DNA of 64,000 bases. Source: an uncultured Chloroflexia bacterium (lineage in GTDB: Bacteria > Chloroflexota > Limnocylindria > QHBO01). The DNA lies in NCBI GenBank assembly GCA_963827475.1, contig CAWHAZ010000005.1, positions 320,001 to 384,000 of the forward strand. Reading direction: 5' to 3'. Below the pieces are notes generated by a model. It saw only the letters and a program-made list of their open reading frames with translations, did no database searches and was not told the origin of the DNA. Positions 2,887 through 5,928 of this stretch are shown in pieces. A program made the position numbers and the translations under genes. Position 1 is the first letter of the stretch. Every line of letters starts with the position of its first letter.

Positions 2887-3600
2887 ATGTCCGGCGCGTT
2901 CACGGGGTTCACGCCCGAGGCCATCCACTTCCTGCTCGAGCTTTCGGCGAACAACGACCGGGGCTGGTTCCAGCCGCGCAAGGCCGAGTTCGAGCGACTG
3001 CTGCGCGACCCGCTCGCAGCGCTGTGCGAAGACCTCGGCGACCGGTTCCGGCGACGGAAGATCCCGCTCAGGGCCGACACCGGCTCCCCGTTCCGGATCT
3101 ACCGCGATGTCCGGTTCTCGAAGGACAAGTCGCCGTACAAGACGTACGTCAGCGCGAGCTTCCCGTGGGACGAGCCCGGCACCCCGGCCGCGGCGCCGCG
3201 GAGCCGGACCGAGGCGGTCCACCGGCCCGGCGGTTACTTCTCCTTCTCTCCCGACGAGGCGTACCTCGGCGGCGGGTTGTGGCACGCCGACCGGCCGTAC
3301 CTCGAGGCCTGGCGCCAGGTGGTCGTCGACGAGCCAAAGCGACTGCACGCGGTCATCGACGCGCCGAAGTTCAAGAAGGCGTTCGGCGATCTCGACGCCG
3401 AGGACCGGCTCAAGAGAGTCCCGCCCGGCTACCCCGCCGACCATCCCGACGCGGAGCTCCTGAAGCTCAAGGACGTCCTGTTCGGCCGCCGCCTGACGGA
3501 TGCCGAGGCGCTGTCACCCGACCTCCCGGACGTCCTGGCCGAGGCCTTCGCGACCGCCACGCCGATGCTTCGATTGCTCGCGTCGCTGGCCGCCGCCTGA
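2887..3600 (+). CDS. DUF2461 family protein
   Basis: FL.EL..NN.R.WF, FRIYRDVRFSKDKSPYK and LKRVP.GY..DHP..ELLK motifs. Confidence 0.88.
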   Translation: MSGAFTGFTPEAIHFLLELSANNDRGWFQPRKAEFERLLRDPLAALCEDLGDRFRRRKIPLRADTGSPFRIYRDVRFSKDKSPYKTYVSASFPWDEPGTPAAAPRSRTEAVHRPGGYFSFSPDEAYLGGGLWHADRPYLEAWRQVVVDEPKRLHAVIDAPKFKKAFGDLDAEDRLKRVPPGYPADHPDAELLKLKDVLFGRRLTDAEALSPDLPDVLAEAFATATPMLRLLASLAAA

Positions 3601-3660
3601 CCCTCGAAACGACCCCACGACGACGTGCGGAAAATGCGCCACGCGCGCCGGGGAAAGGGG

Positions 3661-3666
3661 TAGACT
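3661..3666 (+). promoter_or_regulatory. Putative -10 element (TAGACT) for the candidate ncRNA
   Basis: TANNNT hexamer ending 7 nt before the first paired base (G3673) of the structured region; no clear -35. Confidence 0.5.
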
Positions 3667-3672
3667 CGCGCA

Positions 3673-4209
3673 GCCATCCGACACCGCGGCTTGCCGCGAT
3701 CGGATGGTACGGAGGCATGGAACTGGCGTTCGCGTTGGATCGGTGTCTTCATCGGGTGCTGGTAGCGTAGGAAGCGGAGATAAGCGCCCGCTCCGACGTG
3801 TCATTGACCCACTGCCATTGCCCGGCGTGGTTCGGGACAGCGGTCGAAATACCCTGTCCGGGACGGCCGGGATGACCCGATGGCAAGGCCTTGTGGCACG
3901 GCGGCTACAGTCGGGAACCGATGGGAGCCTCGACCCGAAAGGGAAGAGTCCCGAACTCGACTGGACTGGCCTACGGTTCCGGTTCGGCGGCGGGCACGTC
4001 GTCGGGCGACACTACAAGTCAGGCGTCGCTAAAGAAGTCCGATAACGGCTCGGGTGCCAGGCTCGTCGTCCCGCTTGGAGGACGGACCCGGCGTCTTGAC
4101 CCGAAGTCGGGCGTGGCGCAGGCGCGTCCGTTTGTCCGGCGTGAAACCCGGACCGATAGGCGGGCTGATAGGGGCCGGGTGATCCCCGCAAGGGGTTTGC
4201 CGGGCCCCT
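3673..4209 (+). ncRNA. Candidate large structured non-coding RNA (~540 nt), family not recognised
   Basis: Helices by inspection: 3673-3708 (CUUG loop), 3711-3750 (UUCG loop), 3797-3900 nested domain with a CGAAAU loop, GAAA-capped stem near 3923-3952, 4126-4165 (UGAAA loop), 4170-4209 (GCAA loop). Long-range pairs 3751-56/4038-43 and 3786-96/3984-95. No credible CDS. Confidence 0.7.
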
Positions 4210-4244
4210 GCGCTGTTTCATGGGACGGTTTCGGAGGGCAATGG

Positions 4245-4616
4245 ATGGCCATCATCGTCAAGAACCTCGACCAGCCGGACGAGGCGTTCTCCGACGGGGA
4301 CGCCGGCGCCTCGGGCTACACCGTCGCCGGGGACTCCATGGTCTTCCGATCGGTCCTCCAGCCGGGCTGGAGCTGGGACGAGTACGTCAAGCCCCAGACC
4401 GATGGCGACGAGAGCTGCCAGATGGTCCACCGCGAGTACGTCATCTCGGGGCGGATCCGCTACCTGACCGATGAGGGGGACGAGGTCGTTGCCGGTCCGG
4501 GCGACCACCTGTGGATCGGCCCCGGCCATCGAGCCTGGGTGCAGGGGGACGAGCCGTTCGTCTCGATCGACTTCGAGATCGGCGAGCCGGACGAGGACGA
4601 GGCCGAGTCCGACTGA
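4245..4616 (+). CDS. Cupin domain protein
   Basis: LQPGWSW..VKP, SCQMVH and GPGH.AWV.GDEP motifs; GGAGGG RBS upstream. Confidence 0.8.
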   Translation: MAIIVKNLDQPDEAFSDGDAGASGYTVAGDSMVFRSVLQPGWSWDEYVKPQTDGDESCQMVHREYVISGRIRYLTDEGDEVVAGPGDHLWIGPGHRAWVQGDEPFVSIDFEIGEPDEDEAESD

Positions 4617-4629
4617 CCGCGGAGGCCGA

Positions 4630-4926
4630 TCAGCCGCCCAGGCGTCGCCAGATCTCGCCTTCGTACTCCGGGAAGTAGCGGCCGATCACCGGCAGCTCGA
4701 ACTCGCGAAGGATCGACTCGCGCGGCTCGCGCTCGAGCAGGAAGGCGAACGACTCCTCGGCCAGCCGTTCCGCGGACGTCCCCGGTGGGGCGAGCGTCGC
4801 CAGGTCGTCCGTGGCGATCGAGACGTGGTGGGTCGTCGTCGCGGGCTCGTCACCCACCGTGACCGTGCAGCGCCAGCCGCCCTCCACCGGATCGCAGGTG
4901 AGCTGGACCGGTTGTCCGTCGGGCAT
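4630..4926 (-). CDS. Conserved hypothetical protein
   Basis: 98-aa ORF with typical codon usage and a conserved-looking SFAFLLEREP.ESIL..F.L.VI.RYFPEYE segment. Confidence 0.7.
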   Translation of the reverse strand: MPDGQPVQLTCDPVEGGWRCTVTVGDEPATTTHHVSIATDDLATLAPPGTSAERLAEESFAFLLEREPRESILREFELPVIGRYFPEYEGEIWRRLGG

Positions 4927-4951
4927 GACGCGACTCTCGATGGTCAGGAAG

Positions 4952-5027
4952 TGGAGCGGGAGACGGGGATCGAACCCGCGACATTCAGCTTGGAAGGCTG
5001 ACGCTCTGCCAACTGAGCTACTCCCGC
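4952..5027 (-). tRNA. tRNA-Gly (anticodon TCC)
   Basis: Reverse complement GCGGGAGTAGCTCAGTTGGCAGAGCGTCAGCCTTCCAAGCTGAATGTCGCGGGTTCGATCCCCGTCTCCCGCTCCA forms a 76-nt cloverleaf with TTCGA T-loop and encoded CCA; TACAAT -10 at 5044-5039. Confidence 0.97.
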
Positions 5028-5064
5028 CAGTGGGAAGGATTGTACCGATGCCGACAGTCTGGAC

Positions 5065-5403
5065 CTATCCCGGCTGCTCGCCGACCGTGACGATGGAGTC
5101 GCCGCCGAACACGTAGGGCTCCGCGACCTGGTAGGCGTCGGCCTCGCGGTTCCAGGCCTCGAAGCGCGGATCGCCGTCGTGGGCGTGGTGCCCCTCGTCG
5201 GTCGCAAAGATCGCGACCACCAGGTACTGGACCGCGCCATCGACCCCCTTCGTGCTGATCTCGAGCCGGCTCAACGTGGCCTGCAGCAACAGCCCGCGCG
5301 CATGCAGGTCGCGCCAGATCGGCTCCTCCTGCGCTCGGAACCCTCGCTCGAACTCAGCCGCTCGATCCTCGCCCACGTTCAGCACGATCCCGATCGTCTG
5401 CAT
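5065..5403 (-). CDS. Hypothetical protein, possible dimeric alpha/beta-barrel (ABM-like)
   Basis: 112-aa ORF with GGAGG RBS; the fold guess comes only from the alternating beta/alpha pattern. Confidence 0.6.
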   Translation of the reverse strand: MQTIGIVLNVGEDRAAEFERGFRAQEEPIWRDLHARGLLLQATLSRLEISTKGVDGAVQYLVVAIFATDEGHHAHDGDPRFEAWNREADAYQVAEPYVFGGDSIVTVGEQPG

Positions 5404-5433
5404 GCCTCGCCTCCTGTCTGCGCCGGTGCTCCG

Positions 5434-5928
5434 TCAGTTGGGGCTCGCGGCGAGCTTCTCGAGCTGCTCCGCGTGCTCCTCGAGGTGGCCGACGACGAAC
5501 CGATCCGCGATCTCGGCCACGGTCATCTCGCCCCGCCGCGCATGGAGCCCCCGCGCGGCCCATTGCTCCGGGGTGAGCCCGAGGAGATAGGTTCGGAGCT
5601 GCGCGAGCGCCCCGGCCAGGCGCGCCATCTGCTCGCTCGGCGAGTCGTGACGGCCGGCCTCGATCGCGCCGACCCGACCCTCGTCTTCCGTCGTCCGCCC
5701 GAAAGCGACCGGCTCGGCGCCGCGAGCGGCGCCCACGATGACCCGCCGAATCTCGTTCTGCCAGTACGGGACGAACTCGGCGACGTGCGCCCAGGCCTGG
5801 CCCGCGTCCCACTGCTCCCCGGTGGCCGGGTCCGGATCGGTGAGGCCGGGTGGCGGGTCCTCGGCGAAGGCCGCCAGGCGCCCCTCGGCCACCGCCATCC
5901 GGGCCATCAGCTCCATGTGCTCCTTCAC
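5434..5928 (-). CDS. DinB family protein
   Basis: W...Q..AH.AEF and HLEEHAEQL His pattern; GTG start with GAGGAG RBS, overlapping the FAH stop. Confidence 0.75.
   Translation of the reverse strand: MKEHMELMARMAVAEGRLAAFAEDPPPGLTDPDPATGEQWDAGQAWAHVAEFVPYWQNEIRRVIVGAARGAEPVAFGRTTEDEGRVGAIEAGRHDSPSEQMARLAGALAQLRTYLLGLTPEQWAARGLHARRGEMTVAEIADRFVVGHLEEHAEQLEKLAASPN

Follow-up and report, generated by a model that had tools for sequence, protein, structure and literature searches.

What occupies the 641-bp gap between two protein genes in an uncultured bacterium of 'Candidatus Limnocylindria', a class of the Chloroflexota? We analysed a stretch of 64,000 nucleotides from its genome (the window; assembly GCA_963827475.1, contig CAWHAZ010000005.1, positions 320,001 to 384,000), in which a DUF2461 gene ends at position 3600 (Pfam E 1.9e-57) and a small cupin gene, preceded by a GGAGGG ribosome-binding site, starts at 4242. 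Across the gap the G+C content falls from about 0.71 to about 0.65 and the GC skew goes positive. A preliminary description of the window had seen no credible coding sequence here and had proposed a large structured RNA at 3661-4215. Our joint reading, which we consider likely, is that the gap holds a free-standing gene, single-copy in its 1.92 Mb host genome (7 contigs, 90% complete), for a non-coding RNA (ncRNA) of about 545 nt. The RNA would belong to an undescribed Limnocylindria family and act in trans as a stable folded particle.

We found that the element codes for no protein. Column variability across the gap had no period of three (p 0.5-0.87), whereas the DUF2461 coding sequence of the same genomes showed a strong one (p<0.0005). 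Two proteins encoded by open reading frames (ORFs) of the gap were tested and neither had a Pfam match, in line with the earlier view of the gap. Furthermore, the indels between homologues are not in threes. A decayed or unrecognised protein gene, or a chance G+C-rich spacer, could draw on the stop-free frames of 114-203 aa present in every homologue, but frames of this length are expected at about 66% G+C, and the compensation in 101 base pairs and the one-stranded folding signal described below also speak against such a reading. We regard it as already contradicted and give it practically no chance.

The folding energy of 3661-4215 was compared with that of dinucleotide shuffles. The + strand folds at -292.2 kcal/mol with a z of -5.09, which none of 100 shuffles equalled, whereas the - strand gave a z of -1.59 and 5 of 100 shuffles were as good. 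Thus the folding signal exceeds chance on the + strand only. The preliminary description had taken the orientation from G-U pairs that work on one strand. In our comparison G-U pairs valid on the + strand only, for example 4113:4216, are fixed in 50 of 50 sequences, and these pairs set the strand of the RNA as +.

The comparison set consisted of 50 distinct full-length sequences with pairwise identities of 47-100% (median 59%), aligned with MAFFT; the row L008 (genome G016) is identical in sequence to the public record L030, and none of the conclusions rests on it. The model of the window's RNA has 172 nested pairs and a 4-bp pseudoknot, and 166 pairs in 24 helices were counted in the alignment. 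We found 81.5% of the cells paired, 101 pairs changed on both sides and a covariation score of 0.336. In 500 shuffles the corresponding values were 74.3%, 87.9 and 0.220, with none reaching the model on any of the three, and they dropped to 36-46%, 50-63 and 0.080-0.123 when partners were slid by 1-3 columns; the shuffle control takes no account of kinship, and much of the covariation follows a few deep clade splits. An earlier set of 14 relatives had given compensatory changes in 42 of 126 predicted pairs. In a set of 18 sequences the central domain was 95.5% paired with 17 of 38 pairs compensated, a result reached by 0 of 500 shuffles.

RNAalifold, when run on the 50-sequence MAFFT alignment, lost most helices of the variable arms, and anchored helices together with per-sequence folds were used instead. 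Folded singly, these arms take one shape in 49-50 of the 50 sequences, though 43-49 of these are distinct. In blind scans, whether for stacked covarying columns or for mutual information, co-changes at the clade splits dominated the signal, and by themselves the scans nominate no tertiary pairs. The resulting layout has about 24 helices in five domains, namely two 5' hairpins, an arm closed by helix P6, a central run of four helices, a long H6 arm and a 3' domain closed by P9, and the comparison indicates that at least one long-range pseudoknot (3873-76 with 4018-21) ties the five together. There are 67 invariant columns and about 90 nearly invariant ones. The most conserved bases are unpaired, in joints and loops around the pseudoknotted core. 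With its length, its covarying helices and its invariant unpaired bases the RNA falls into the operational category of large ornate bacterial ncRNAs (more than about 400 nt).

The same category calls for an independent non-coding transcription unit, which we found, with transcript ends that are predicted. The -10 promoter box TAGACT (3661-3666, + strand) follows a family pattern TAnAnT, whose four fixed letters are the same in every one of the 50 homologues, and the distance of the box to the first helix, P1, is fixed in all 50. A -35 hexamer, TTG[AC][CA]N, lies 17-18 nt upstream of the box in 26 of the 50; in the window this hexamer is degenerate. A conserved A-rich element (TGCrGAAAA-like, 3626-3634, + strand) lies further up, about 27-35 nt before the -10 box; its consensus over 49 upstream regions anchored at the box is 'tgcagAAA.Cg', and it is possibly an UP-like promoter element. 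The predicted primary transcript of about 545 nt (3673 to ~4219, + strand) starts 7 nt after the -10 box and ends just past the last conserved helix and its GUUUC, and conservation starts and stops at these borders in the 50 homologues. Conservation extends a few bases past the last helix (4216-4224: GUUUC, then YNGGG) despite differing downstream genes, and this tail may belong to termination or processing.

The neighbouring genes differ from clade to clade. In the window's genus DUF2461 lies upstream in nine loci, and the downstream gene is the cupin in five loci and a convergent gene for a 98-aa protein in five (L004 and L007-L010, with the cupin non-adjacent in L007-L010). Other clades carry a divergent DUF4446 gene upstream and a convergent MgsA/RarA gene downstream, elsewhere a PCC-domain gene precedes the RNA and a convergent gene for an amino-acid permease follows it, and further clade neighbours are LytR with adenylate cyclase, and glyoxalase. 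Among 84 flanking ORFs surveyed at 25 loci none recurs across clades as a constant neighbour of the ncRNA, and there is no recurring integrase, transposase, reverse transcriptase or nuclease gene. Since the neighbours vary and are often convergent, the ncRNA is not a leader. Judged from these comparisons, it is a gene of its own with a conserved promoter. The earlier suggestion of independent transcription thus fits the -10 box, the -35 hexamer and the variable neighbours, and it also fits the coverage of the element by RNA-library contigs.

The RNA is present in RNA libraries. Part of window positions 3600-4300 was present in 20 of 24 listed runs, and these 20 span 13 studies; 19 of the 20 are on record as RNA, with 0.45-0.61 of the sampled words. 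The habitats as listed are rhizosphere, soil, mine-drainage, sediment and river metatranscriptomes. For four runs from four studies (X1, X4, X9 and X10) contigs were compared with window positions 3000-4900. The contigs of the four studies cover 3684-4164 with 0-3 differences. X4 record 17 (462 nt) matches 3689-4150 with 2 differences and X4 record 20 reaches 4164, X9 record 21 (386 nt) matches 3765-4150 with 0 differences, X1 records 4-7 cover 3684-4150 and X10 records 9-15 cover 3691-4152. The differing letters T3718C, T4063C and T4114C are those of close relatives in our alignments. In X1 the word depth was 325-2921 for pieces of the RNA versus 4-8 for pieces of the flanking genes, and the X1 pieces on both flanking genes mean that a close relative was in the sample. 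In X10 pieces of the RNA reached 25,000 versus 8.5 for a cupin piece. Thus the RNA is present well above its neighbours in soil RNA libraries, as judged by contig depth, which is a poor measure of expression and not a measurement of it. The metatranscriptome check suggested by the preliminary description therefore found the element itself; contigs reveal neither the ends nor the strand of the RNA.

High-depth contigs from all four runs break off at 4150-4152, with one reaching 4164, which leaves about 55-65 nt to the predicted 3' end. Adapter-like letters at 3684/3685, 4152 and 4164 cannot fix the RNA ends or the strand. The stop at 4150-4164 may come from a 3' hairpin (P11) that is trimmed or under-sequenced, from strain variants that break contigs, or from library effects. 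The uncovered parts (most of the flanks in X4 and X9; 4165-4215 in X9) carry no evidential weight. A joint 3794>3903 in X10 was dismissed, as it occurs in one contig only, with a side of 24.

Homologues were found in several searches. BLAST against 60 relatives matched 14 genomes, 13 of which were confirmed at full length by nhmmer; these are 11 of the 17 same-genus genomes and two from other genera of the family. Three motif scans of 185,579 species genomes gave 35 different loci, 31 of them confirmed by nhmmer, and a metagenome scan gave 28 contigs, all 28 confirmed. The central domain was also turned into a covariance model (139 positions, 38 pairs), which matched 14 genomes in a class-wide sample of 151. 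Of these matches 13 are real, 12 in the window's own family (own genome included) and one, full length, in a second family. Among 150 genomes sampled across the phylum nothing credible was found outside the class, and IMG/VR viral contigs gave 0 matches to the ncRNA. The preliminary description had made its proposal depend on homologues and covariation, and both were obtained, with 31 species genomes, 28 metagenome contigs and both-side changes in 101 of 166 pairs. As far as searched, the RNA family appears limited to 'Candidatus Limnocylindria'.

Twenty-six of the 31 confirmed species records are titled Chloroflexota, Chloroflexi, Chloroflexia or 'Candidatus Limnocylindria', and five that carry the RNA are otherwise labelled (L023, L033, L056, L070 and L072; titled Actinomycetota, Gemmatimonadales, Steroidobacteraceae (two) and 'proteobacterium'). 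Three of the five contigs are of 2.9-3.3 kb, one is 15.5 kb and one 1.1 Mb, and the neighbours in L056 (DUF4446/MgsA type) match a Limnocylindria clade. Mis-binning or loose labelling seem likelier than transfer. Matches that failed nhmmer were set aside. These were the weak matches L015 (a 27-nt BLAST match), L055 (G053, E 0.009) and L104 (G251, 24.8 bits), and the pattern-scan loci L058 in Caulobacter, L059 in Streptomyces, L061 in Acidimicrobiia and L067 in Pirellulales.

Two congeners have no trace of the RNA. G012 (93% complete) and G014 (97%) keep the gene order deaminase, DUF2461, 98-aa hypothetical gene, with a spacer of about 55 nt between DUF2461 and the convergent 98-aa gene (L102, G012:C82, 2196-2251; L103, G014:C5, ~1463-1504). 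The same spacer holds a 600-bp RNA gene in relatives. The empty sites are known from reading the spacers, and the central-domain model found no copy elsewhere in the two genomes. The RNA is therefore dispensable, and has been gained or lost at one locus within the genus. The 98-aa protein, encoded in the window at 4630-4926 (- strand), is conserved and has no Pfam family, and its gene lies beside the RNA locus genus-wide, RNA present or not. In L003 and L005 it matches in 2-3 pieces, which suggests frameshifts or assembly errors.

The helices were examined one by one; all lie on the + strand and are predicted from the comparison. P1 (3673-81/3700-08) with the inner P1a (3685-89/3694-98, CUUG loop) makes up 3673-3708 and folds into one hairpin in all 50 homologues, which have 46 distinct sequences there. 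Both-side changes occur in 5 of 8 P1 pairs and 4 of 5 P1a pairs, in a segment where MAFFT performs poorly (70% of cells paired). P2 (3711-18/3743-50, inner stem 3723-28/3733-38, UUCG loop; 3711-3750) is likewise a single hairpin in 50 of 50, with closed ends in 46 and inner stems 87-92% paired. The joining strand CGGGUGCUGGUAGCGUA (3751-3769) is a run of invariant columns for which no secure partner was found. It is followed by P3b (3770-3794; 3770-71/3793-94 and 3773-77/3788-92 with a conserved 10-nt loop), in which 97.4% of cells are paired and 2 of 7 pairs switch between A-U and G-C on both sides. P6 (3797-3804/3893-3900) closes the domain 3797-3900 and has 69-77% of cells paired and 7 of 8 pairs changed on both sides. 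Inside it lies the P4/P5 arm (3813-3885), formed by P4 (3813-20/3878-85), P5 (3821-22/3870-71 and 3824-26/3866-68) and P5b (3835-40/3854-59 and 3842-44/3851-53, loop CGAAAU). The arm is one long hairpin in 49 of 50 sequences, with ends closed in 48. P5 is 90.8% paired, the complementarity of P4 is kept between clades despite different sequences, and a GGGAU at 3869-73 is invariant.

The pseudoknot PK1, which the preliminary description had missed, pairs UGAC at 3873-3876 with GUCA at 4018-4021. All of its 198 cells are paired and 4 of 4 pairs changed on both sides, reading UGAC/GUCA in one clade group and UCGU/ACGA in the other. H1 (3908-15/3956-63; 3908-3963) encloses the hairpin H2 and an internal loop with an invariant GGG(A)ACCG. 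In H1 99.5% of cells are paired and 4 of 8 pairs covary, and in H2 8 of 10 pairs covary (18 sequences). H3 (3964-68/3974-78, loop GCCUA; 3964-3978) has 250 of 250 cells paired and 2 of 5 pairs covarying, and H4 (3985-91/3998-4004; 3985-4004) is 96.3% paired with 7 of 7 pairs changed on both sides. The loop of H5 (4005-10/4025-30 and 4012-13/4022-23; 4005-4030; 95.5% paired, 3 of 8 pairs covarying) holds the 3' strand of PK1. H6 (4037-43/4106-12; 98.3% paired, 5 of 7 covarying) closes a long irregular hairpin (4037-4112), whose interior (4046-48/4101-03, 4053-58/4090-95, 4060-64/4084-88 and 4065-71/4077-83) is a single hairpin in 50 of 50 with both-side changes in 17 of 18 pairs. The 3' domain (4113-4216) is closed by P9 (4113-19/4210-16; 92.8% paired, 1 of 7 covarying), whose pair G4113-U4216 is the G-U fixed in 50 of 50. 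The domain contains P10 (4121-66; 89.6% paired, 6 of 12 covarying) and P11 (4170-4209, GCAA loop; 10 of 16 covarying, ends closed in 50 of 50), and a conserved GUUUC follows it.

A candidate second pseudoknot, PK2, would join 3767-71 to 3970-74 in the H3 loop. It has 250 of 250 cells paired and one covarying pair (A-U in 38, G-C in 12), and it overlaps two invariant P3b pairs and one H3 pair. Other pairings were dropped. P3 (3754-57/3807-10) was 82.5% paired, but one of its pairs failed to form in 28 of 50 sequences and none changed on both sides, and P3a (3765-68/3798-3801) had 167 of 200 cells paired, 16 of these A-G, and clashed with the better-supported P6. AACCGR (3916-21) with CYGGUU (3979-84) had 209 of 300 cells paired where gap placement is doubtful, and a small hairpin at 3886-3907 gave a z of 0.17.

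Nine of the 13 pairings named in the preliminary description were upheld by the 50 homologues. These comprise P1 with P1a, P2 with its UUCG hairpin, P6 (preferred over P3 and P3a), the nested P4, P5 (given as 3821-26/3866-71) and P5b with their cap, H1 (CAGUCG/CGACUG) with its inner hairpin, and the terminal GCAA hairpin P11. Four were not. The long-range pairing 3786-96/3984-95 has 65% of cells paired, with two of its pairs formed in 0 and 1 of 50 sequences, and clashes with two well-covarying helices, while 3751-56/4038-43 is 82% paired but clashes with H6. A GUGCCA/UGGCGC closure of a multiloop is 31% paired. The stem 4126-36/4155-65 is 70% paired, and the real stem lies in a register four bases off (4125-39/4148-62, about 90% paired).

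We compared the element with known RNAs. In a cmscan of the whole window against the 4227 families of Rfam 15 at gathering scores the only match was tRNA-Gly at 4955-5027 (- strand), and a permissive scan of 3500-4350 (E<=10) returned six unrelated small families at chance level, with E values of 1.2-9, far below cut-offs. The novelty proposed earlier is thus consistent with the Rfam search, whose best match to the element was an unrelated family at E 1.2. The tRNA-Gly (UCC; 4952-5027, - strand, 71.8 bits) lies about 740 nt downstream of the ncRNA gene. The preliminary description had noted that hallmarks of RNase P and transfer-messenger RNA (tmRNA) are absent from the element, and both RNAs sit elsewhere in the genome. 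RNase P RNA (RF00010) is at C3:44490-44798 (171.6 bits), with none in 3500-4350 at E<=10, and tmRNA (RF00023) is at C4:161303-161660 (114.7 bits), with ARAGORN seeing only the tRNA-Gly in 3000-5500. The signal recognition particle (SRP) RNA is on contig 2 (78.3 bits). Like the Limnocylindria RNA, these three are stable, structured and abundant, with pseudoknots and own promoters, but they are universal, whereas the Limnocylindria RNA is missing from congeners.

Bacterial RNAs that are large, intricately folded and of no known function are few, and the usual examples are OLE, GOLLD, ROOL, HEARO and raiA. OLE RNA (RF01071) is about 600 nt long and occurs in extremophiles and anaerobes of the Bacillota. 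The Limnocylindria RNA resembles it in size class, in its many conserved helices amid invariant unpaired bases, in having its own gene and in its narrow taxonomic range. PMC3413148 describes OLE as present at a high level; for the Limnocylindria RNA a high level is suggested by contig depths, and the biochemical function is open in both. The OLE model gave no match in the region or the whole genome (E<=1), a weak test in which no control genome matched either. The two also differ in phylum, with no match in sequence or structure, and in that the Limnocylindria RNA has no conserved neighbour gene, in a survey of flanking ORFs that was not aimed at named OLE-associated protein families. The membrane ribonucleoprotein context of OLE is not known to apply here.

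The preliminary description had also considered a distant relative of GOLLD or ROOL. We detected no such kinship. The ROOL model (RF03087) was empty in the region and genome-wide, again a weak test with no match in any control genome. GOLLD is presumably in the Rfam library, though not under RF01998, which is group-II-D1D4-1, and no Rfam 15 family of the GOLLD kind matched. ROOL and GOLLD RNAs form RNA-only homo-oligomeric assemblies according to PMC12286853. The Limnocylindria RNA is like them large, ornate, sporadic among relatives and of unknown function, and RNA-only assembly is a mechanism possibly shared. It differs in having no phage or tRNA-cluster context, with 0 viral-contig matches, and in its hosts, which are Chloroflexota rather than Lactobacillales or lake and rumen phages. 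The raiA-motif RNA is about 200 nt long. PMC10861870 and PMC11706538 describe it as a structured stand-alone ncRNA class of Gram-positive lineages whose biochemical function is unsettled, and PMC11706538 places it in more than 2,500 species. It is thus smaller and far more widespread than the Limnocylindria RNA, which has no Rfam match. Nor is there support for an RNA that guides or partners a mobile element (HEARO/omega RNA, group II intron or retron): the 84 flanking ORFs include no Pfam family for IscB/TnpB, a transposase or a reverse transcriptase, the gene is single-copy, and the group II domain model (group-II-D1D4-1) has no match in the genome. Riboswitches and cis-leaders keep a constant same-strand upstream position, and here the downstream gene differs and is often convergent.

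In the literature we found no paper on such an RNA, nor a described ncRNA of Limnocylindria, in a search that did not extend to supplements. In a term search of preprint 10.64898/2026.10.21.760802 the sole mention of Chloroflexota concerns tandem-repeat arrays, and the motif could stand in its supplements. From the lack of an Rfam 15 match and of any paper found on it we rate the RNA as a new class, as the preliminary description had thought possible. Its kind, the large ornate bacterial ncRNA, has precedents, and the family appears to have no detectable relative among these.

How might such an RNA act? It would work in trans through its three-dimensional fold, as a stable particle, because there is no fixed neighbour to regulate and no partner gene. 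By analogy with OLE, ROOL and GOLLD, the invariant unpaired bases may build a tertiary core to which proteins (one or several), a ligand or other copies of the RNA bind. The RNA would be no leader, riboswitch or antisense regulator, and its benefit would be accessory rather than essential.

Several observations weigh against the reading of the element as a free-standing, trans-acting RNA particle. The high-depth contigs begin at 3684-3691 and stop at 4150-4164, inside the predicted ends, so that the species abundant in the libraries may not span the whole conserved element; alternatively, the helices at its ends may serve as signals for processing or termination. A generic scan scored no sigma-70 promoter and no terminator at the window's ncRNA. 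Because the variation splits along few deep clades, the independent events are fewer than the cell counts suggest, and MAFFT misaligns the variable arms (P1, P2, P4/P5b, the H6 interior and inner P10/P11; 60-82% of cells paired). Only 13 of the 151 sampled class genomes carry the RNA, which fits an accessory role. Finally, a protein partner would rest on analogy, with no constant neighbouring protein gene.

Other explanations of the element deserve weighing beside it. A large ribozyme, with an active site built from the pseudoknotted core and the invariant unpaired stretches and able to cleave or ligate RNA or to carry out another reaction on a cellular substrate, would account for the many invariant bases in joining strands and loops and for PK1 and the second candidate, and the size and complexity of RNase P and group I/II introns cover the range of this RNA. 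However, no Rfam ribozyme family matched, there are no evident flanking exons, reverse transcriptase or processing substrate, absence from close relatives would be unusual for a core catalytic RNA, and we know of no catalytic role reported for the earlier large ornate classes. We consider a ribozyme unlikely. We think it very unlikely that the RNA stands in for 6S or Ms1 RNA, sequestering RNA polymerase in soil cells that grow slowly. In stationary cells few transcripts are as abundant as 6S and Ms1, and like them the Limnocylindria RNA is an ncRNA with its own promoter and with contig depths in soil RNA libraries far above those of its neighbours. The 6S model (RF00013) was empty in 41 Limnocylindria genomes, the window's own and 40 relatives (G000-G052), so that the class has either a divergent 6S or none; the model is insensitive (5 of 14 controls matched), and its silence says little. 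Congeners without the RNA also lack a detectable 6S, and there is thus no complementary distribution. The fold, too, is branched, pseudoknotted and multi-domain rather than a rod with a central open-promoter-like bubble, and the Rfam model has 187 positions, about a third of the length of this RNA (about 545 nt).

The RNA could instead be a trans-acting sensor with two folds, in which the 3' strand of P2 (3743-47) competes with the 3' strand of H5 for 4008-12 and so remodels H5 and PK1. The alternative helix is 97.2% paired with 3 of 5 pairs changed on both sides (slid controls 34-51%). Its pair 3744:4011 is U-A in 10, A-U in 26 and G-U in 12 sequences, and in the window's clade A4011 faces C4024 in H5 but would pair with U3744 in the alternative. 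On the other hand, the helix is just 5 bp and G+C-rich, its changes follow one or two clade splits and may be coincidence, P2 and H5 are each independently supported, and no ligand or output is known, so that the chance of such a sensor seems small indeed. It is hardly tenable that the element is a long 5' leader of the cupin gene or controls that gene like a riboswitch. The element does lie on the same strand, 23 nt upstream of the cupin start, and one low-depth X1 contig (record 8) spans from 4133 into the cupin gene. But synteny contradicts it, as the convergent 98-aa gene comes next in five same-genus loci and other clades have a convergent MgsA or permease gene downstream.

Beyond the free-standing, trans-acting particle that we favour, a bolder view can be put forward tentatively, though we doubt it. 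In this view the RNA would found a new class of RNAs, large and pseudoknotted, and rank among the more abundant non-ribosomal Limnocylindria transcripts in soil. It would act as a machine of its own, either a new ribozyme or a self-assembling RNA-only particle like ROOL and GOLLD, and it may toggle between two folds (P2/H5 versus 3743-47 with 4008-12).

Earlier large RNA classes led to new biology, namely RNA-only cages, RNA-guided nucleases and stress ribonucleoproteins. The class that carries the RNA described here has not been cultured, is common in soils and has small genomes (about 2 Mb), and RNA libraries of several habitats contain the RNA. It can be tested without culture, by in vitro transcription, and it could serve as a marker transcript for the activity of Limnocylindria in metatranscriptomes.

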